NCBI GenBank assembly: GCA_964597895.1
Contig: CAZQZS010000005.1
Location: forward strand, 1 to 52,723
Length of the DNA stretch: 52,723 nucleotides
Source: an uncultured Candidatus Saccharibacteria bacterium
GTDB lineage: Bacteria > Patescibacteriota > Doudnabacteria > UBA920
Direction of reading: 5' to 3'
Under the pieces are notes generated by a model. That model saw nothing but the letters and a program-made list of their open reading frames with translations. It was not told where the DNA came from and did no database searches. A program made the position numbers and the translations under genes. Positions 1-22,908 of this stretch are shown here, piece by piece. Numbering within the stretch: position 1 is the stretch's first letter; every line of letters starts with the position of its first letter.

Positions 1-55
1 GAACCCAGGACCGATCGGTTAACAGCCGATAGCTCTACCGCTGAGCTACTCCCGA
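1..55 (-). tRNA. tRNA-Asn(GTT), 3' part truncated by window edge
   Basis: Reverse complement reads TCGGGAG-TA-GCTCAGCGGTAGAGC-T-ATCGG-CTGTTAA-CCGAT-CGGTC-CTGGGTTC: D-arm, anticodon arm with GTT and start of T-arm. Confidence 0.93.
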
Positions 56-4456: not shown

Positions 4457-5437
4457 ATGAAAGTAGTATATTTTGGCCTGAGCGCCAAACAAAAATCATG
4501 GCTAAAGTCGCAACGTTCCAGGTATGACTGGCGCGCGGCCGCTGGTCCGATAACCTTGAAGCATTTACCAAGCCAAGGCACTGAAGTAATTTCTATTCAC
4601 ACTGAAAGCCGGATTACCTCTGCCATTTTGGACAAATTGCCAAACCTCAAGCTTATCGTAACTCGCACGGCTGGTGTGGATCATATTGATTTAGCGGCAT
4701 GTCATCGCCGCAAGGTGGCGGTGGTAAATTGCCCTGGCTTAAATGCTTCATCTGTGGCCGAGTTTACTTTCGCATTGCTGTTATCATACCAAAGGCGTTT
4801 ACCAGAAGCTCTCCAAGACGGTAAAAAACTACTGCTGGGATCAGAGAAATTGGCTGGTTTGGAATTGGCTGGCAAAACTCTCGGGATAGTCGGTACTGGG
4901 GCGATTGGCCAGAGGGTTGCGCAAATTGGGGCAGGGTTTGGTATGAAGTTGCTGGGTTATGACGCCAAGCGAAACGCTAAGGCTGCCAAGAAGCTTGGCT
5001 TAACTTATCTTGGCTTAAAACAGTTACTGCAGCGCTCTGATGTGGTTTCAATCCATGTGCCAGCTACTCCGCTAACCGAACATATGTTTAACCGCAGTTT
5101 GCTGGGTCATATCAAACATAATGCCATCTTAGTAAACACGGCCCGAGGGAGTGTCGTAGAGCCTAAGGCAGTTCTTTGGGCCTTAGACAATGGAAAACTC
5201 CAAGCTTATCTTACCGATGTGTTAGACAAGGAACAGCAAATTTATCTTCACGGTAGAGCAACCCCTAAGGACCGTTTGATTATTAAGTGGCAAAAACAGT
5301 TGTTACGCCATCCAAGAGTGTTAGCTACCCCACACATCGCCCATTATACTGCCGAATCAGAGCTTCGGATTTTGGAGTATACCCACGATTCTATCGGCAA
5401 GTTTTTATCAGGCAAAAAAATCTCCGCAATTATCTGA
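4457..5437 (+). CDS. D-isomer-specific 2-hydroxyacid dehydrogenase (glycerate/D-lactate type)
   Basis: TAGVDHIDL, GKTLGIVGTGAIG Rossmann motif, NTARG, TPHIA catalytic motifs. Confidence 0.9.
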   Translation: MKVVYFGLSAKQKSWLKSQRSRYDWRAAAGPITLKHLPSQGTEVISIHTESRITSAILDKLPNLKLIVTRTAGVDHIDLAACHRRKVAVVNCPGLNASSVAEFTFALLLSYQRRLPEALQDGKKLLLGSEKLAGLELAGKTLGIVGTGAIGQRVAQIGAGFGMKLLGYDAKRNAKAAKKLGLTYLGLKQLLQRSDVVSIHVPATPLTEHMFNRSLLGHIKHNAILVNTARGSVVEPKAVLWALDNGKLQAYLTDVLDKEQQIYLHGRATPKDRLIIKWQKQLLRHPRVLATPHIAHYTAESELRILEYTHDSIGKFLSGKKISAII

Positions 5438-5481
5438 TTTGTGGTTAGTAGGTTTTGTTAAGTTGTGTCAGCTCTTGAGCC

Positions 5482-5507
5482 GTCCCCGTGAGGGGACTTT
5501 TGTTTTC
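5482..5507 (+). terminator. Intrinsic terminator
   Basis: GTCCCC-GTGA-GGGGAC followed by TTTTGTTTT. Confidence 0.7.
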
Positions 5508-5597
5508 TGTGGGGATAACTGTTGATTGGACGGGCGGCTGAAAATAAAAAGTAGGTAAACCATGGCAGGTTTTTGAATTCCCGCCATTGTTTGGTTA

Positions 5598-5645
5598 CCC
5601 CAATATATAGGGGTATAATTTTTATACCTACACAACATCATGTGT
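5598..5645 (+). promoter_or_regulatory. Tandem NrdR boxes flanking a TATAAT -10 element
   Basis: cccCAATATATAGggg (5598-5613) and acaCAACATCATGtgt (5630-5645), 32 bp apart, matching acaCwAtATaTwGtgt; TATAAT at 5614-5619. Confidence 0.8.
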
Positions 5646-5710
5646 TAAGTAAAACCTCAGGTTTTAGCTGGTCTGTTCAGCTTTCGGTCTGAAGTTTAGG
5701 AGCTTCTATA

Positions 5711-6154
5711 GTGAAATGTCCCAAATGTTTAAATATTGATACCAAGGTGGTTGACTCCCGGCCAGTAGAAGAGGCTGGGGCAATCCGGCGCAGGAGGGAA
5801 TGCGAAAAATGCAATTTTAGATTCTCAACCTATGAGCAGATTGAACTTCTAGGTTTGGCAGTCACTAAACGCGATGGCAGCAAACAGCCGTATTCCCGGG
5901 AAAAGCTGGAGCACGGCCTTAGGCGGGCCTTTGAGAAGCGCAACCTCACGGACTATATGTTTCGCAAAGTTATCTCCGAGATTGAGCAAGAGATCCAGCG
6001 CAAGAATGGCGGCGAAATTACCAGCGAGCAGATTGGCGAAATTGTAATGAAGGTCATCCGCAAAATAGACAAAGTGGCTTACATCCGTTTCGCCAGCGTG
6101 TACAGGCAATTCGAAGATATCAATGAATTTAAACAAGAAATATTGAAATTGTGA
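5711..6154 (+). CDS. nrdR: Transcriptional repressor NrdR
   Basis: CPKC...RRRECEKC zinc ribbon, ATP cone, VAYIRFASVY. Confidence 0.97.
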   Translation: MKCPKCLNIDTKVVDSRPVEEAGAIRRRRECEKCNFRFSTYEQIELLGLAVTKRDGSKQPYSREKLEHGLRRAFEKRNLTDYMFRKVISEIEQEIQRKNGGEITSEQIGEIVMKVIRKIDKVAYIRFASVYRQFEDINEFKQEILKL

Positions 6155-9510: not shown

Positions 9511-10545
9511 ATGCCAATCCAGAAAACTAACCAAAGAGTAAATATCAACGACCGCCGTGTTATTAACGGAAAAGATGCCGACGTAATTCAGCTTTACCCA
9601 ATGAAGCATAAGTTTGCTTGGGAGTCGTATCTTGCAGCTAACGCCAACCACTGGTTGCCGACAGAAATCGGCATGCAGCTGGACATTGAGCAATGGAAGA
9701 GCCCAAACGTACTATCTGCTGATGAGCGTCAGGCTTTTGAAACCGTGCTCGGCTTCTTTACCACAGCTGATTCAATCGCTGCCAACAATATTGTGATGGC
9801 AGCGTACAAACACGTTACCTCACCAGAGGTTCGTATGTATTTGCTGCGACAAGCTTTCGAAGAGGCTATTCACACGCATGCTTACCAATACATTGTAGAA
9901 AGCCTTGGTATGGACGAAGGCAAAATCTTTAACATGTATCGGGAAATTGATTCAATCTATAACAAAGCTTCTTTTGTGCTTACCTTCAACGAGGGAATCT
10001 TTAATCCTGATTTTAAGACCGGCACATTGGAAGCTGACCAAAAGTTCGTGGAGAATATTGTTGTTTTCTCACTGATCATGGAAGGCATCTTTTTCTACAG
10101 TGCTTTTGCAGTCATGTTCGGTTTTCAGCGCCAAAAGAAAATGGTGGGCAGTGCAGAGCAGATTCAGTACATCATGCGCGACGAGTCTATGCACTTAAAC
10201 TTTGGCATTTGGCTGATTAACACTATCCGCGAGGAACAGCCAGAAATTTGGACGCCGGAATTCCAGCAGCATATTGTTGATTTGGTCAAAGAAGCAGCTG
10301 TGCTAGAGTATACCTTCGCCCAGACCGTATTCCCTAAAGGTATCTTTGGCATGAATGCCGAGGGCTTTAGGCAGTACATTGAACACATCGCCGACCGTCG
10401 CCTTAACAGCATCGGCTTGCCAGCCCAGTTTAACGTGGCCAACCCATTCCCTTGGATGAGTGAAGCAGTAGACTTAAGCAAAGAAAAGAATTTCTTCGAA
10501 ACCCGCGTAATAGAGTATCAAACTGGCGGAACCTTAGATTGGTAA
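9511..10545 (+). CDS. nrdB: Ribonucleoside-diphosphate reductase class Ia beta subunit
   Basis: ADS, EEAIHTHAY (radical Tyr present), MEGIFF, RDESMH metal ligands; NFFETRVIEY tail. Confidence 0.97.
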   Translation: MPIQKTNQRVNINDRRVINGKDADVIQLYPMKHKFAWESYLAANANHWLPTEIGMQLDIEQWKSPNVLSADERQAFETVLGFFTTADSIAANNIVMAAYKHVTSPEVRMYLLRQAFEEAIHTHAYQYIVESLGMDEGKIFNMYREIDSIYNKASFVLTFNEGIFNPDFKTGTLEADQKFVENIVVFSLIMEGIFFYSAFAVMFGFQRQKKMVGSAEQIQYIMRDESMHLNFGIWLINTIREEQPEIWTPEFQQHIVDLVKEAAVLEYTFAQTVFPKGIFGMNAEGFRQYIEHIADRRLNSIGLPAQFNVANPFPWMSEAVDLSKEKNFFETRVIEYQTGGTLDW

Positions 10546-18232: not shown

Positions 18233-18259
18233 AAAAAAGACCCTTTTATCGCAGGGTCA
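18233..18259 (-). terminator. Intrinsic terminator
   Basis: Minus strand GACCCT-loop-AGGGTC-T7 directly after the 71-aa ORF. Confidence 0.7.
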
Positions 18260-18472
18260 GGCGATTTCCTCATCCGATAACCTAAGTTTATATCTTTGAG
18301 GGTGGCAGAGTTCACAGCTATAATCAGGGATTATTAGCGGCCCGACTGGGCCTTGTTCTTGTTGAACAGCCCAAGCCCAAGCAAAGACCGAACCGTCAGG
18401 GATAATTGATTCATGCCGGCCAGACTCGCATCGCCAAGTGCGCTGCGGCCCCACAAAGTGTTGATCTTTCAT
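18257..18472 (-). CDS. Small Cys/His-containing protein (71 aa), possible metal-binding
   Basis: GGAGG SD 6 nt upstream of ATG 18472; C-x4-H and CELCH motifs; terminator downstream. Confidence 0.6.
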   Translation of the reverse strand: MKDQHFVGPQRTWRCESGRHESIIPDGSVFAWAWAVQQEQGPVGPLIIPDYSCELCHPQRYKLRLSDEEIA

Positions 18473-18814
18473 TAGCATCCTCCAATTGATTCAAAAATAA
18501 ATACCATCCTTACATCCTTAGCTAAAAAGAATATAACAATGGTATTTATTTTGGTGGAGATGGCTATTCGGCAAGCTCAGGGCAGGCGGGAGTCTGTTTA
18601 ACTCCCACTATACCATTAACAAACATTCCACTTCGTGAAATCTTTGTTAATGATGGACATCATCTCAAAAAACTTGGAACCCATTCAAGATTACATCCTG
18701 CGGTGGTATCTTGTGTTGTTTGATGTCCAAAGATACAGCATTTGCGGGCATACTAGCAAGTTCCAGCTATTGAAGAGCCGATATCTGTAGTTTTTTTAGA
18801 TTTTCCTCATGCTC

Positions 18815-18843
18815 TTGACATAAATCCCGAAATTCGTTATAGT
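18815..18843 (+). promoter_or_regulatory. sigma70-type promoter for islet peptide operon
   Basis: TTGACA (18815-18820)-17 nt-TATAGT (18838-18843). Confidence 0.8.
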
Positions 18844-18924
18844 TGGGCTGACCTTGGAAACTAGGTTTTTGCCTGCTATCTGGCAGACAAAGTCAATTTT
18901 ATAGACTAAGGAGGGGTCAAACGC

Positions 18925-19026
18925 ATGAAGAAATTCAAGTTTCGTTCACGAGTGCGCAAGCCGAAGGCGAAAAACCTGAAGCTCGCATCAACGTGTTCCG
19001 GCGGCGACGATAGCAACAACTGCTAA
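18925..19026 (+). CDS. 33-aa peptide, basic N-terminus and Cys-flanked C-terminus (not in ORF track)
   Basis: MKKFKFRSRVRKPKAKNLKLASTCSGGDDSNNC; TAAGGAGG SD; near-consensus promoter; downstream hairpin 19052-19082. Confidence 0.7.
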   Translation: MKKFKFRSRVRKPKAKNLKLASTCSGGDDSNNC

Positions 19027-19096
19027 TTGCTATGGAAGCCTTTCTACAACATTGGTCACTGCAAGTTTTCTTGTGTGGCCAATTATTTATATAAAG

Positions 19097-19741
19097 ATGA
19101 AGATAAATATAATATACTCGGACCAAATTAAGCTGAGTCCAGCGTTAAAGCTTAAAATCAATAAGACCATTAGGAACACTTACTCCAAGGCGGAGGATTT
19201 GATAGAGCTGAAACCGCTAACCTTTTTCGTTTATGGTAATCCCGGTATAGATGTTAAAAGAGTCGGAGGCTACACTCCATCGGGAAGCGTTATCCAAATT
19301 GCTTTAAACCCTAAATCTAGAATTACGGCGGCATATTTGGACCTGCTTTCGATGACCGTAGCTCATGAGCTTCATCACGCTGCAAGATGGAATGGGATAG
19401 GTTTTGGAGATACTCTTTTTGATGTGCTGATTAGCGAGGGTATGGGGAAACTGTTTGAAGTAGAGGTTACTGGCTTGGAATTGGATACGCTGATAGCTAA
19501 ATTCGGCACGGACGAGGTGAAGAGATGGTATTCAATAGCAAAAAAAGAGTTTCTTTCTGAAAAGTATTCTTACGCCGACTGGTTTTTTGGCTCCGAAGCC
19601 AGAGCGATTCCTAAACGGATGGGTTACGCTTTGGGTTGTTATATTGTGAGCGAATATATGAGACTCAAAAAGCTCAAGCCGTCCCAGTTAGTAAATGTCA
19701 AAAGCGACAAAATCTATGCCACGATTATCAAAGCCTTATAA
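19097..19741 (+). CDS. Putative Zn-dependent metallopeptidase (DUF2268-like gluzincin)
   Basis: TVAHELHHAAR (HExxH), LISEGMG, WFFGS...RMGYALG; start revised from 19052 to MKINIIYS. Confidence 0.8.
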   Translation: MKINIIYSDQIKLSPALKLKINKTIRNTYSKAEDLIELKPLTFFVYGNPGIDVKRVGGYTPSGSVIQIALNPKSRITAAYLDLLSMTVAHELHHAARWNGIGFGDTLFDVLISEGMGKLFEVEVTGLELDTLIAKFGTDEVKRWYSIAKKEFLSEKYSYADWFFGSEARAIPKRMGYALGCYIVSEYMRLKKLKPSQLVNVKSDKIYATIIKAL

Positions 19742-20018
19742 AATTACTTATATTGATTCGCCAAATTTTTCCTCAGGGTTTGAGCCTTTTATAAAGGAAG
19801 AAATCAATATGCTAATGAAGAATTTGGATAAGCCTAAGACTGCGATCCAATTTGTGGTTTTCGAACAACTCACCAAGGCCTCCCGAATGGGTTACGCATT
19901 AACCTCCGCTAAAGGACTTATCGGTATTGGCTTGAATAGCAAGCTAAAAAATTTAAAAGAAATTGTTAAGACAAATCTTCCGGCAGATTTAAAGATAAAA
20001 ATACAATCATTACAATGA
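19695..20018 (+). CDS. Hypothetical protein, weakly similar to N-terminal half of upstream peptidase
   Basis: Open 107 codons, start uncertain (ATG 19695 or 19716); overlaps peptidase 3' end. Confidence 0.5.
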   Translation: MSKATKSMPRLSKPYKITYIDSPNFSSGFEPFIKEEINMLMKNLDKPKTAIQFVVFEQLTKASRMGYALTSAKGLIGIGLNSKLKNLKEIVKTNLPADLKIKIQSLQ

Positions 20019-20034
20019 TTGGAGGTGAAAGCAA

Positions 20035-20118
20035 ATGACTCGTAAAGAGCGAATCAGGCGCATAGCTGAGAAGCTTTGCGCAGCTAAGTGCGCTGCCTGT
20101 CAGGGCTGCACATCATGA
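20035..20118 (+). CDS. 27-aa Cys-rich peptide (not in ORF track)
   Basis: MTRKERIRRIAEKLCAAKCAACQGCTS; GGAGGTGA SD at 20021-20028; two hairpins downstream (20119-20161). Confidence 0.7.
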   Translation: MTRKERIRRIAEKLCAAKCAACQGCTS

Positions 20119-20185
20119 AGCCGAAAGGCTAAGGGCGTAGTACATTCAATATGTGCTACGCTCAATTTTAATATATACTTAATTT

Positions 20186-20776
20186 ATGGATAATAAATCT
20201 ACAAGCAATTGGGATAATTACTACGAAAATACAAAGAATTATCCTCCAGCTCCATTATTAGTTAAAGCCTTAGAGTACGTAGAAACAATAGGCAAGGCTA
20301 TTGATATAGGTGGAGGCGGAACATTAAAAGATACCTTATTTTTACTCTCCAAAGGTTTTGATACTACTGTAGTTGATAAAGAGGATGTGATAGCAGTGTC
20401 AGTAGAAAAGGTTGGTTCTGATAAACTTCATTTTTTCGTTAGCAGTTTCTCTGATTTTGATTTCCCTGTAAATGAGTATGATTTAGCAGCTGCTATCTAC
20501 TCATTGCCTTTTACTCCGCCAAAAGATTTCGAAAGAGTGTTTGAAAAAGTTAAGTCTTCTTTAGTACAAAATGGCGTATTTTGTGGTCAGTTTTTTGGTG
20601 ATCGCGATGGATGGAAAGACAATTCTAATTTAACATTTGTTACAAAAGAGAAGGCAATGTCTATGTTAGACGGCATGGAGGTCCTCCATTTTGAAGAAAA
20701 AGAATTTGATGGCAAAACAGCCGATGGCTCGGCAAAGCATTGGCATGTGTTCGATATTATTGCTAGAAAGTTATAA
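20186..20776 (+). CDS. Class I SAM-dependent methyltransferase (TehB-like)
   Basis: AIDIGGGG motif I, acidic VVD motif II, YDLAAAIYSLPF, NGVFCGQFFG, HWHVF; TATACT 7 nt before ATG. Confidence 0.85.
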   Translation: MDNKSTSNWDNYYENTKNYPPAPLLVKALEYVETIGKAIDIGGGGTLKDTLFLLSKGFDTTVVDKEDVIAVSVEKVGSDKLHFFVSSFSDFDFPVNEYDLAAAIYSLPFTPPKDFERVFEKVKSSLVQNGVFCGQFFGDRDGWKDNSNLTFVTKEKAMSMLDGMEVLHFEEKEFDGKTADGSAKHWHVFDIIARKL

Positions 20777-20852
20777 CCTTACTTTTATTCGTAGAGCGCT
20801 TTGGCTAATTTCTCTACTAACAAAAAAAGCACTTATATAAGCGCAATTTTAG

Positions 20853-21234
20853 TGGTGGAGATGGCGGGAGTTAAACCCGCGTCCAAAACTGGTTCACCAT
20901 CTCATTGGTCACAAGCTTAGTCCGTTTAAGTGCCTTTAGTCTAACAACGGACAACTAAACTAAAGGTTGATTAACAACTATTCGGCTGAGTCGCGTTAAT
21001 CAAACGACGCAGCTATAACTCCTAATAAAGCAGTGACTCTGTGGCCGGAGTAGACAACAGGACTGCGCTTTCACCTAAGTTAGGCTACAGCAGGTGCGTA
21101 GTCAGCAGAAAATGCTGCTACGACCTTGTTCCATGCGTTAGCACGTATGAATGCTTGTAAGATTTACGAGCTTGCAAGCTGGCTCGGCTTGTATATGAAA
21201 TGATGTCAAAGTTCTGTCAAAATCCGGCATCCCC
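20853..21234 (-). ncRNA. ssrA: tmRNA (transfer-messenger RNA)
   Basis: 5' GGGGATGCCGGATTTTGAC, 3' GACGCGGGTTTAACTCCCGCCATCTCCACCA; tag ORF ANAWNKVVAAFSADYAPAVA at 21080-21142; smpB nearby. Confidence 0.95.
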
Positions 21235-21273: not shown

Positions 21274-21326
21274 GGCTGTCTGTAACGATGATATAATAAA
21301 TTTAACTGAAATTAATTATCTAGATT

Positions 21327-22118
21327 ATGCCATTTGATTCAGACCCGGACCGAAAATTTAACCATGAGCATTATTCGTTTTTACCAAGCAATCATTATGA
21401 GGTTTTGGGCGTAAGCAACTCTGCTTCACCCGAAGAGATCAAGAAAGCTTACCGCCAGAAGCTAGTTGAAGGTCTGCACGAGGATAAAATTGCCGGCATG
21501 CCTGAAGGGCCGGAAAAGGATAGTGCGCAGCGAAAGTTGGAGGCACTAAAAGAAGCTCAAAGAGTGTTAGAAAACCCCCGGCTTCGGCAAATTTACGATA
21601 CGCACCTTGAAGGACAAGCTGGTAAACAGTCGGTAAGTCCAGATACTGACTCTCCAGAATCAGAAGCTGGTTCGGTTTCACCCGAGCAAGTAAAGGAGTG
21701 GTTTGATTTGGCTATGTCGCGTTTGGATTTAGCGGTTGATAAGGACGCTATGGATGCGGCGATAGCCGATTTTAACGCCAATTTCCCAGGACCTAAACCA
21801 ACCGCTGATTCAGATGGACGTCAGAGTATTCAGCGGGAAAAGCTTGTCAGCATTCCCGAAGGGGATTTTATAATTTATACCGTGGCTAACATGGGCGACA
21901 TCGCTTCACAGCGTCTGGTGGCGCGTGAACTTCCGCCATTCAAAATTGGCGACATGCTAAAAGTTAAGCGTACTAGCGGTGAAGTTGAAGAAGGCTGGCA
22001 GGTGAGCGATTTTGAAATCAAGGATGGAGTCCACGGTCCCGTGCGAATTATTGTTTTAGAAAAAGGCGATCTAATCAAAAAAGTAAATGCCAAGAATCTT
22101 AGAGAGATAAATAGCTAA
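21327..22118 (+). CDS. J-domain-like protein (HPD changed to HED) with C-terminal beta domain
   Basis: NHYEVLGVSNSASPEEIKKAYRQK..LHEDK..EAQRVLENPRLRQIYD. Confidence 0.75.
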   Translation: MPFDSDPDRKFNHEHYSFLPSNHYEVLGVSNSASPEEIKKAYRQKLVEGLHEDKIAGMPEGPEKDSAQRKLEALKEAQRVLENPRLRQIYDTHLEGQAGKQSVSPDTDSPESEAGSVSPEQVKEWFDLAMSRLDLAVDKDAMDAAIADFNANFPGPKPTADSDGRQSIQREKLVSIPEGDFIIYTVANMGDIASQRLVARELPPFKIGDMLKVKRTSGEVEEGWQVSDFEIKDGVHGPVRIIVLEKGDLIKKVNAKNLREINS

Positions 22119-22128
22119 GGGTTACATT

Positions 22129-22443
22129 ATGGAATTTAGAGAAGTAGAGCCGAGTTTTTCGGTAGAAGAGTCAATCTCGCCAGAAAAGATCTTGGGAATT
22201 ACCGAGCATGCCAATCTTGAAGAATTAGAACAGGCTTTTGCTCGCCGTATGCAAGGATTGTTAGATGAACTAATCGCTGGTCAGAGCGGAGAGGGCTTGC
22301 GGGTGATTCCGCAGCAGGAGTACGAGGCGAGGCTGGCTGAGATTCAGCATGCTTACCAAACTTTAAAAGCACGGGCAGCAGCAGAAAACGAGATTGATAC
22401 CCAGGAACTGGACCCTAATTTTCCTAATCAATTAATAAAATAA
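22129..22443 (+). CDS. Degenerate J-domain-like small protein
   Basis: PEKILGITEHANLEELEQAFARR...EIQHAYQTLK; no HPD. Confidence 0.6.
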   Translation: MEFREVEPSFSVEESISPEKILGITEHANLEELEQAFARRMQGLLDELIAGQSGEGLRVIPQQEYEARLAEIQHAYQTLKARAAAENEIDTQELDPNFPNQLIK

Positions 22444-22444
22444 A

Positions 22445-22479
22445 AAAACTCCCTTCGCTGGCAGGCGGAAGGGAGTTTT
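22445..22479. terminator. Bidirectional terminator
   Basis: AAAACTCCCTTC(GC)...GAAGGGAGTTTT between convergent genes. Confidence 0.75.
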
Positions 22480-22482
22480 AAA

Positions 22483-22908
22483 TTATTTTTTTGCTTTTTT
22501 GGCAACCTTTTTGGCTTTAGTTACCTTAACTTTTTTGACTGCGGATTTTACAGCCTTAGGCACAACTTTTTTTACGCTTTTGCCGGCTGCGTTGATTTCT
22601 GCGCTGATAATGTCCCAGTGCGCTTTGAGCTCTGCGGCTAAACCGGCCAGTTCGGGCGTATCAACATTCTTTAATCCTTTGTATTGCTTAGCTGCAGTGT
22701 CTACAATTTTGTTGTAAGTCGCTTTGGTAACTTTGCCGGCCTTGTTTACTTCTTTGGCTACGTCAGCCTGCATATCTTTTGCCCACTTGGCAATTTTTTT
22801 GCGGTTTTTAGCATTCTTCCCGGTTAGGAAGTAAGCTGCTGTGGCAGCTGCGGCAATGGCAGCTACTCCGGCTCCCACGGCGACTGCTTTTTTTTGAGAC
22901 TTGTTCAT
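22483..22908 (-). CDS. Lys/Ala-rich membrane-anchored protein (YtxH-like)
   Basis: N-terminal hydrophobic AVAVGAGVAAIAAAATAAYFL, amphipathic helices, histone-like KKA tail. Confidence 0.65.
   Translation of the reverse strand: MNKSQKKAVAVGAGVAAIAAAATAAYFLTGKNAKNRKKIAKWAKDMQADVAKEVNKAGKVTKATYNKIVDTAAKQYKGLKNVDTPELAGLAAELKAHWDIISAEINAAGKSVKKVVPKAVKSAVKKVKVTKAKKVAKKAKK

Follow-up and report, generated by a model that had tools for sequence, protein, structure and literature searches.

Parts of two peptide-gene modules in a composite interval beside the tmRNA gene of a Patescibacteria genome

Directly downstream of the minus-strand gene for transfer-messenger RNA (tmRNA, ssrA), one contig of a Patescibacteria (candidate phyla radiation, CPR) genome carries an interval with two short genes for cysteine-containing peptides, here named pepA and pepB (positions 18552-20865 of contig CAZQZS010000005.1; the window referred to below is this entire contig of 52.7 kb). 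The interval is composite in structure, and it very probably consists of two unrelated, individually conserved peptide-gene modules that were joined by a recent recombination or deletion downstream of ssrA. Module A (about 18651-20020) would be the 5′ part of a cluster, mobile and about 4.3 kb long, for a ribosomally synthesised and post-translationally modified peptide (RiPP), similar to those for thiazole/oxazole-modified microcins and linear azole-containing peptides (TOMM/LAP). Module B (20021-20776) would be the 3′ half of a conserved four-gene set, located at the same chromosomal position in the closest relative. What the window contains is an accidental junction of two incomplete modules. 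Relatives fetched for comparison, as loci or contigs, are labelled L001-L104.

An initial annotation of this DNA had proposed a self-contained peptide system on a single islet. The features that it listed, namely a promoter, the peptides, hairpins, a peptidase, a 107-aa open reading frame (ORF), a methyltransferase and repeats, are all present in the interval, which has a GC content of 0.35-0.41 compared with 0.45-0.49 in the flanks. Its genuine peptides, its gluzincin peptidase and its link to RiPPs have held up, whereas the single minimal module and the single islet have not. Both small cysteine-containing ORFs can be regarded as real genes and not as chance ORFs, given their conservation in other genomes.

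The truncated module A and its intact relatives

The composite structure is most directly visible at a recombination junction at 20019-20022, where homology to the intact clusters of L104, L001 and L007 stops (at 20020) and homology to the syntenic relative L011 begins (at 20021). Nucleotide homology between the window and L001 extends from ~18615 to 20020, ending 2 nt past the stop codon of the 107-aa ORF (ORF107). L104, a 78.9-kb contig from another metagenome sample, encodes a DUF2268 peptidase identical to that of the window, and its positions 4698-5924 correspond to window positions 18794-20020 at 99.92% identity (one mismatch in 1227 nt). L104 then runs on into the gene for a fusion protein (MNLRIKPIALSYGY...) exactly where the window turns to the Shine-Dalgarno sequence (SD) of pepB. 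An assembly chimera at 20020/20021 was ruled out: repeats common to the two parental sequences do not exceed about 6 nt there, and L103, a Logan contig of 1441 nt from an independent assembly, spans the junction and matches window positions 18610-20050 at 100%.

In the intact clusters (L001-L007 and L104), ORF107 is directly followed by a gene for a 729-aa fusion of a SagB-type dehydrogenase and a YcaO cyclodehydratase, after which L001 and L003 have a convergent gene for a UbiE-type methyltransferase. The fusion protein scores 92.5 bits against the SagB model TIGR03605 (cut-off 78.4) and matches the SagD-type YcaO model TIGR03604 with E = 2e-40, under the full-length cut-off of that model; its Pfam matches are YcaO (E = 1e-43) and Nitroreductase (E = 3e-16). 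A profile search of the PDB with the fusion returned the azoline oxidases McbC, BmdC and CyaGox as well as the cyclodehydratases TruD, LynD and MusD. The N-terminal ~120 residues give only hints of the Pfam wHTH and PqqD domains (E about 0.05), and this winged-helix-like domain would be the leader-recognition element.

The cluster is truncated in the window. Searches of the whole 52.7 kb by tblastn with the fusions of L001 and L010 found no match, so that the contig encodes neither a YcaO protein nor a SagB/McbC-type flavin mononucleotide (FMN) dehydrogenase; queries with the convergent methyltransferase and with UCP032817-like, TauD and HIT proteins had no match either. The missing cyclase can be explained by this truncation, because both the 99.9%-identical copy in L104 and the clusters of L001-L007 continue into the SagB/YcaO fusion where the window switches to other DNA. 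Since the window has no YcaO and no dehydrogenase, its copy of module A is classed as a TOMM/LAP remnant, and pepA and DUF2268 are predicted to be what is left of a thiazole/oxazole-type peptide cluster, not a functional member of that class. The intact relatives, by adding the YcaO fusion, support the assignment of pepA, its hairpin and the peptidase to a RiPP cluster in the initial annotation; by continuing into that fusion, they contradict the self-contained minimal new system that it had also proposed.

Module A begins with a conserved non-coding left end of the cluster cassette (18651-18793, plus strand), which starts with the core TG(G/A)TGGACATCATCTCAAAAAACTTGGAACCC and of which the first ~65 nt are also found in L013, directly upstream of its methyltransferase gene. 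A 51-aa ORF at 18635-18790 was rejected as a gene, as this region is missing in L007 and L104, both of which keep the promoter. This sigma-70-type promoter (18815-18843, plus strand) consists of TTGACA (18815-18820), a spacer of 17 nt and TATAGT (18838-18843), with 11 of 12 consensus matches. Promoter-like sites are not enriched in the region (11 found, compared with 7.9 ± 2.7 in shuffled sequences), and the match alone is hence not significant. It is made more credible by relatives that retain both hexamers and differ in the spacer: the hexamers are identical in L001, where the spacer has three substitutions, and are also kept in L007 and L104, where the spacer varies.

The pepA gene (18925-19026, plus strand; SD AAGGAGG at 18908-18914) encodes a precursor-type peptide of 33 aa, MKKFKFRSRVRKPKAKNLKLASTCSGGDDSNNC, with the basic leader MKKFKFRSRVRKPKAKNLKLA and the core STCSGGDDSNNC. 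The peptide is 100% identical in L001-L007, the two nucleotide differences being synonymous, and it remains unchanged while DUF2268 diverges to 87% identity. It is followed by a hairpin (19051-19083, plus strand; -18.4 kcal/mol, z = -2.5; tail UUAUUUAU), the stem of which is preserved in L001 via a U-G to U-A change and which is a possible attenuating terminator. Divergence along module A is uneven. Between window 18925-20018 and L001 5829-6922, the synonymous divergence (dS) is 0.68 for DUF2268, 0.10 for pepA and 0.02 for the last 69 codons of ORF107, which suggests either recombination inside the cluster or constraint at the nucleotide level.

The next gene (19097-19741, plus strand) encodes a DUF2268 (YjaZ-like) zinc metallopeptidase of 214 aa with the motif HELHH...EG. 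It matches Pfam PF10026 over its full length (E = 2e-23, 83.3 bits, gathering cut-off 23.6), and the HExxH residues (H90, E91, H94), R97 and E114-G115 are invariant among 26-27 homologs. An AlphaFold2 model (pLDDT 96) predicts a gluzincin-type, thermolysin-like fold. Its top Foldseek matches are all M1/M4 gluzincins (M1-family aminopeptidase, thermolysin, vibriolysin, aureolysin and LTA4H), with probabilities of 0.94-1.0 and TM scores of 0.38-0.55, but E-values of only about 4e-3. The Pfam match, the invariant ligands and the model thus agree with the HExxH..EG gluzincin that had been read from the sequence initially. A PDB sequence search with the protein gave nothing informative, and no characterised member or solved structure of the DUF2268 family was detectable by sequence. 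The closest homologs, P0001 (95% identity) and P0002 (87%), are encoded on contigs L001-L007. When changes between the window and L007 are polarised with L001, the window copy has three derived non-synonymous changes and the L007 copy five; relaxed selection on the window gene was accordingly rejected for want of a signal, as expected for a very recent event.

ORF107 (19695-20018, plus strand) has an alternative start that would give 69 aa (ATG at 19809, SD AAGGAAG). Its homology matches are confined to its own lineage, and it may be a lineage-restricted gene. A kinship with the N-terminal half of DUF2268 was considered, but the similarity (3.4 bits, blastp E = 0.04) does not suffice for such a claim.

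The association of the fusion with DUF2268 and a short precursor is not limited to the lineage of the window. A profile from an alignment of two fusion proteins was scanned against one genome per species in GTDB r232 (185,579 species genomes) and found 538 relatives. The best near-full-length fusions come mostly from Saccharibacteria, Taylorbacteria, Yanofskybacteria, Magasanikbacteria and other Patescibacteria, with a few from Proteobacteria and Bdellovibrionales. With a hidden Markov model built from DUF2268 homologs, 16 of the 26 near-full-length loci examined were found to have a DUF2268 gene at a distance of no more than about 400 nt from the fusion gene; L010 shows the pairing too, with a DUF2268 protein that is 39% identical. 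Homologs of DUF2268 without YcaO also exist, in L008 and in L009 from Deinococcus. At no fewer than 15 of these loci, an SD-led ORF of 29-63 aa lies between or beside the fusion and DUF2268 genes, examples being MKVKRVRKVRVIPYSKTVGASSNTSQTCNHSSG in L010, MSKTKTVKVAVKPYEGSIHAYMSKCGSCSDKR in L018, MKIPKKFSWKVTAEQKPAPGTIRCQEQCSSGKCSGKCNKDK in L028, ...SLSWKVSVKPRRAGRSAVPMGCSCCGGK in L029 and MRKFNWKLSAKAKRPSGTSPKSRNSNQCQSSNDCGNGVCGK in L030. The search for adjacent peptides beside homologous peptidases, which the initial annotation had put forward as a check, was thus positive at these fusion loci. Aligned, the precursors share a basic leader, F-x-W/F-K/R-V/I...K/R-P, followed by a Cys/Ser/Gly/Asn-rich tail, and pepA matches this pattern with its leader FKFRSRVRKPK and its tail STCSGGDDSNNC. 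The relevant partner of pepA would be the YcaO fusion, which is absent from the window, and DUF2268, from its adjacency to precursor and fusion genes, is the predicted leader peptidase of the cluster.

From these associations a pathway can be proposed for the intact cluster. The promoter would yield a transcript rich in pepA, attenuated at the hairpin, and the fusion protein would bind the basic leader through the motif F-x-W/F-K/R-V...KP. By analogy with the known chemistry of SagB, YcaO and McbC, the fusion would then carry out ATP-dependent cyclodehydration of Cys, Ser and Thr residues in the core and oxidise the products to azoles. DUF2268 would subsequently cut off the leader, with possible tailoring of the product by the UbiE-type methyltransferase. 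At the window locus, pepA would at most be made and cleaved, not heterocyclised, unless a fusion gene is present elsewhere in the genome. A full-text literature search found no paper tying DUF2268 to YcaO or to leader processing; YcaO clusters of the CPR appear in the literature only as antiSMASH counts (e.g. PMC12153355), and the complete cluster family seen in the relatives is probably undescribed.

Two further observations concern the surroundings of the cluster. L104 has a second SagB/YcaO fusion gene ~4 kb upstream of the cluster. In three contexts (L104 1-4664, L002 1280-2416 and L007 2-361), the cluster is immediately preceded by Peptidase_S66 genes (LD-carboxypeptidase/MccF-like). Both findings may point to an immunity function or to a second cluster.

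Module B in its native setting

Module B has a different origin. The order of genes in L011 is Nramp, a 131-aa gene, an S9 peptidase, (a 414-aa gene), a 71-aa gene, a UCP032817-like gene, a TauD-like dioxygenase, pepB, the methyltransferase, HIT, tmRNA, a 141-aa gene, a 92-aa gene, PLD, SmpB and ArgRS, and it is collinear with that of the window. Sequence matches to L011 cover window positions 18233-18561, 20021-20816 and those from 20818 onward; pepB is identical over its 27 aa, the methyltransferase is 81% identical, and the tmRNA is 99% identical and has the same tag. Window positions 20021-20776 are native, syntenic and vertically shared DNA. In L013, the 71-aa gene, HIT and a 77% identical methyltransferase are likewise present, whereas pepB is missing.

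The pepB gene (20035-20118, plus strand; SD GGAGGTG) encodes a Cys-rich microprotein of 27 aa with four cysteines, MTRKERIRRIAEKLCAAKCAACQGCTS, and is never called by gene callers. It recurs in relatives as part of a four-gene set, comprising genes for a UCP032817-like protein of about 165 aa and a TauD-like protein of about 220 aa, pepB with its hairpins, and the methyltransferase, which is found in L011 (3657-5591) and, in unrelated contexts, in L014-L017, L098, L100 and L101/L102. In all of these relatives pepB has exactly 27 codons for amino acids, an AAGGAGG SD, and a small hairpin and a terminator after it. The sequence varies (MTRQERIKYIAENLYAAKCAACTGCTS in L014, MTRQERIKRIAEMLCATNCAACQGCQS in L100, MTRQERITRIAEKLCAATCAACQGCTT in L101) around a CxxxCxxCxxC motif, which is CxxCxxC in L014. 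Pairwise non-synonymous divergence (dN) is 0.08-0.20 and dS ranges from 0.65 to saturation, with dN/dS about 0.1; because dN is low against a dS of up to saturation, pepB is predicted to be a translated gene under purifying selection. A degenerate DNA pattern of the pepB C-terminus, run over JGI metagenomes, found two loci only, both of the known lineage, the pattern being too strict to widen the family.

Two hairpins follow pepB (20119-20163, plus strand): a hairpin with a GNRA loop and then a 13-bp intrinsic terminator (20133-20163; -26.6 kcal/mol, z = -6.7). They show compensatory changes in L011 and have equivalents in L014, L100 and L101. The methyltransferase gene that comes next (20186-20776, plus strand) encodes a TehB-like class I S-adenosylmethionine (SAM) methyltransferase with the motif DIGGGGG, which scores 22.6 bits against Methyltransf_11 (cut-off 21.2) and 26.2 against Methyltransf_25, just under the cut-off of 27. 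Nearly all of its 52 homologs are from Patescibacteria. This native syntenic gene has no SD and is preceded, 6-7 nt before its ATG, by a -10-like box that is conserved in relatives; it is apparently expressed as a leaderless message. The terminator between pepB and this SD-less gene with its own -10-like box implies that pepB belongs to the upstream UCP-TauD operon, of which the two upstream partners are missing in the window. The caveat of the initial annotation that the methyltransferase may be an independent unit is therefore well placed, given also that the gene stands alone in L013. Its assignment of pepB and the methyltransferase to the cargo of one element does not agree with the relatives, where both are syntenic chromosomal genes after the UCP032817-like/TauD pair.

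As for its role, pepB is most likely a substrate or partner of the TauD-like/UCP pair, in other words a candidate precursor for the dioxygenase pair, judging from its constant neighbours. A small metal- or redox-active peptide with the CxxxCxxCxxC motif would come second. Least likely is a function purely as an attenuator leader, because the N-terminal half of pepB is as conserved as its Cys codons. In such a scheme, pepB would be a Cys/Ala-rich leader peptide, the translation of which controls terminator read-through into the SD-less methyltransferase gene. The layout is suggestive, as pepB ends 15 nt before the strong terminator, which is itself 23 nt before the methyltransferase ATG, and the last 13 codons of pepB include four for Cys and five for Ala. 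However, conservation of the N-terminal half (MTR[KQ]ERI.RIAE.L) at saturated dS would be unusual for attenuator leaders, no alternative antiterminator pairing is evident in the folds, L013 has the methyltransferase without pepB, and the conserved -10-like box lies 6-7 nt before the methyltransferase ATG; we consider attenuation unlikely. PDB sequence searches with the UCP032817-like protein and the methyltransferase gave nothing informative, and a literature search found no paper on UCP032817 or on the four-gene set.

The evidence from the two modules also bears on the proposal that they form one minimal self-contained system, carried as one islet, in which both Cys peptides are processed by DUF2268 and methylated by the SAM methyltransferase. 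The genes all lie on the same strand with their ORFs intact, the promoter at 18815 could drive expression from pepA through pepB, and the two peptides resemble each other in having a basic N-terminal half and a Cys-containing C-terminal half. Yet the peptides are unrelated neighbours, each half having its own partners that are conserved elsewhere and absent here, and the combination occurs only in the window and in the 100%-identical short contig L103, with no diverged genome in the sample. The junction is also fresh, at 99.9% identity to an intact cluster, and a strong terminator splits pepB from the methyltransferase. A single system is thus very improbable, and the two peptides are better seen as belonging to separate modules.

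Between the methyltransferase and ssrA, a stub of a HIT-family gene (LVEKLAKALYE*; 20785-20820, minus strand) comprises the last 11 codons and the stop. It is taken as the remnant of a ~0.47-kb deletion, because L011, L012 and L013 keep the complete gene at this place. The tmRNA gene itself (20853-21234, minus strand) was found by ARAGORN and matches Rfam RF00023 with 115.6 bits; its tag is ANAWNKVVAAFSADYAPAVA. Adjacent run accessions hold both alleles of the locus, L012 (ERR2586216) being of the L011 type with HIT and L103 (ERR2586215) of the window type with the junction, and both strain variants may coexist in related samples.

Repeats of the tmRNA end and the history of the interval

A 13-nt exact repeat of the tmRNA 3′ end, TGGTGGAGATGGC, lies at 18552-18564, the second copy, at 20853, being the tmRNA 3′ end itself; there are no further exact copies in the 52.7 kb. 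The left copy is part of a window-specific segment of ~100 nt (18552-18651) that is absent from L011, L013, L001 and L002. Read on the minus strand, this insert folds (-37.1 kcal/mol, z = -5.0) into two hairpins, one long and one T-arm-like (GGGAGU-loop-ACUCCC), the latter followed by ...GCCAUCUCCACCA. The window thereby has two tmRNA-end-like cores in tandem, TGGTGGAGAT at 18552 and TGATGGACAT at 18651, and the exact 13-nt match to the tmRNA end exists because the insert creates it. Rfam, at gathering and at permissive thresholds, recognised only the tmRNA, with nothing on the insert or on the conserved upstream element, and an exact search for the T-arm-like insert in all fetched loci and in viral contigs found no copy. 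To the right of the terminator-like hairpin, L011, L013, L001 and L002 start with TGGTGGA(C/T)AT...; thereafter L013, L001 and L002 run on with (C)ATCTCAAAAAA(C/A)TTGGAACC, and L011 is more diverged (TGGTGGACATAGTGCAAAAAACTTTAAACCC).

Similar cores delimit the complete cluster in relatives. In L001 the 4.3 kb from pepA to the convergent methyltransferase lie between 9-nt direct repeats, TTGGTGGAC (5554-5562 and 9868-9876), and L003, a contig of 4322 bp from another sample, runs exactly from repeat to repeat, as would be expected if an integrase-less cassette took a circular or tandem form. In L002, L007 and L104 the cluster is found in other left-hand contexts, beside S66 peptidase genes. The cluster appears to be a cassette, with recombination taking place at cores that resemble the tmRNA 3′ end (TGGTGGAG). 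No integrase or recombinase was found in 18552-20865 among ORFs and by Pfam, and none in the cassette either.

The repeats had been read initially as att-like ends of one inserted islet, and it could accordingly be supposed that all of 18552-20865 entered by site-specific recombination at the ssrA 3′ end and that the integrase was lost later. The 13-nt exact repeat is placed precisely at the tmRNA 3′ terminus, and the left repeat is followed by the T-arm-like hairpin and preceded by a terminator-like hairpin, as in a displaced tmRNA end. The interval is low in GC, relatives have decayed tmRNA-end-like cores (TGGTGGACAT...AAACCC) at the same place, the cassettes of L001 and L003 are bounded by repeats as described, and L013 has only a 44-nt tmRNA 3′ fragment. 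These points are offset by the lack of an integrase or other recombinase in the interval, by the origin of the exact repeat in a window-specific insertion, and by the separate relatives of module A in three other genomic contexts. Moreover, the right half of the interval (pepB, the methyltransferase and the HIT stub) is collinear with relatives that have no exact repeat. Entry as one unit is therefore unlikely. Only 18562-20020 differs from the relatives: L011 and L013 keep the methyltransferase in place (L011 also pepB) together with HIT, no empty site was seen, and the slot that holds the UCP-TauD pair in L011 is occupied in the window by the first 1.4 kb of the YcaO cassette. We interpret the stretch from the 71-aa gene to ssrA as a hot spot of long standing that has been remodelled repeatedly, and not as a single island of 2.3 kb. 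At best, the interval as a whole could be described as such a tmRNA-adjacent hot spot, which is compatible with two modules joined by recent recombination.

In L013, unrelated DNA comes after the tmRNA 3′ fragment of ~44 nt (5299-5342), and no tmRNA was detected by ARAGORN on this 6-kb contig; ssrA may be interrupted or displaced there.

Several points weigh against the reading of the interval as an accidental junction with a non-functional module A. The window copies of pepA, DUF2268 and ORF107 are all intact, and DUF2268 has no excess of derived amino-acid changes. Because no decay is visible in these copies, loss of function is deduced from gene content; the 99.9% identity to an intact copy explains why decay is absent. 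The analysis covered one contig of this genome; a YcaO fusion encoded elsewhere in it could act in trans, and L104, with two fusion genes within 8 kb, shows that a second copy is not far-fetched. The wHTH and PqqD hints at the N-terminus of the fusion are weak. The order of events can be read in two ways, as a deletion between two adjacent clusters or as replacement of the UCP-TauD pair by a cluster fragment. Finally, the rearrangement has placed pepB, with its SD intact, behind the promoter of module A, and may in this way have created a new functional combination.

Other features of the window lie outside the composite interval. A 73-aa ORF without a family match (18257-18478, minus strand; 71 aa in relatives) is located between the S9 peptidase gene and the variable region, has 97% nucleotide identity in L011 and is also found in L013. 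On the promoter side of the tmRNA gene, two genes at 21277-22522 precede the 141-aa gene, one of 263 aa with a DnaJ J-domain (E = 1e-12) and one of 104 aa with a faint J-domain match. This pair is an insertion relative to L011, where the 141-aa gene directly follows the tmRNA, and shows that the opposite flank of ssrA is variable as well. At the contig end, positions 1-55 (minus strand) hold a partial tRNA gene cut by the end (Rfam RF00005, 37.8 bits).

Relation to known systems

The closest known systems to the intact cluster are the TOMM/LAP clusters for microcin B17 (McbBCD), streptolysin S (SagBCD) and plantazolicin (PznBCD, with the methyltransferase PznL and a protease). As in these, a short precursor with a Cys/Ser/Thr/Gly-rich core is encoded directly beside the enzymes, the relatives have a SagB-type FMN dehydrogenase and a YcaO protein, and the intact cluster has a dedicated protease, a SAM methyltransferase and a hairpin 3′ of the precursor gene. 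The differences are nevertheless substantial. The window copy is without the dehydrogenase and YcaO, and in the relatives the two are fused into a single protein of 720-740 aa that has an additional N-terminal domain; the fusions were seen without a separate E1-like or Ocin-ThiF partner beside them, and in the loci read no ABC exporter was seen adjoining the cluster. As its protease the cluster has a DUF2268 gluzincin, not a CaaX-type enzyme or TldD/E. At 29-63 aa the precursors are very short, their F-x-W/F-K/R-V...KP leader is strongly basic, and the family is concentrated in Patescibacteria.

The peptidase shares with the DUF2268/YjaZ family (PF10026, 'predicted Zn-dependent protease') the full-length match, the HExxH motif with a downstream Glu-Gly, and a predicted gluzincin-like fold, but a link to YcaO clusters exists for only a subset of this family; L008 and the Deinococcus homolog L009 are examples without it. 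The methyltransferase resembles TehB-type enzymes in its Rossmann-fold with the DIGGGGG motif and in its weak matches to TehB models; it scores 28.6 bits against an equivalog cut-off of 218 and so falls outside the equivalog, and in Patescibacteria its gene is usually preceded by those for the UCP032817-like protein, TauD and pepB. Among the genomic islands integrated at the ssrA 3′ end are the classical tyrosine-integrase islands and prophages. The interval has in common with such islands a direct repeat of the tmRNA 3′ end, low GC, strain-variable cargo and tmRNA-end-like cores at cassette boundaries; it differs in lacking an integrase, in a repeat of just 13 nt, in content that is partly vertical and in cargo that is exchanged piecemeal.

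Taken further, and more tentatively, the window may hold a broken copy of an undescribed family of Patescibacteria RiPPs. In this family, a three-domain protein, together with DUF2268 as a new type of leader peptidase, would convert very short F-x-W-K-V...KP precursors into azole peptides, encoded on a 4.3-kb integrase-less cassette between tmRNA-end-like TTGGTGGAC cores. As part of the same tentative proposal, a second pathway, likewise undescribed, would act on pepB (CxxxCxxCxxC, 27 aa) by means of a TauD-like dioxygenase and a UCP032817-like protein, possibly with the TehB-like methyltransferase as well.

Patescibacteria, with their tiny genomes, are thought to lead a life attached to other microbes, and to our knowledge almost nothing is known about peptides that they might secrete. 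Against this background, the locus is of interest in three respects. It provides a natural 'minus-YcaO' allele, with 99.9% identity to an intact counterpart, and shows how clusters break and reshuffle beside tmRNA. It contains, in pepB, a new and strongly conserved Cys-rich microprotein of 27 aa that gene callers have overlooked. Lastly, the SagB/YcaO fusion, DUF2268 and very short precursors travel together over many CPR lineages, which gives the function-less DUF2268 family a testable role.

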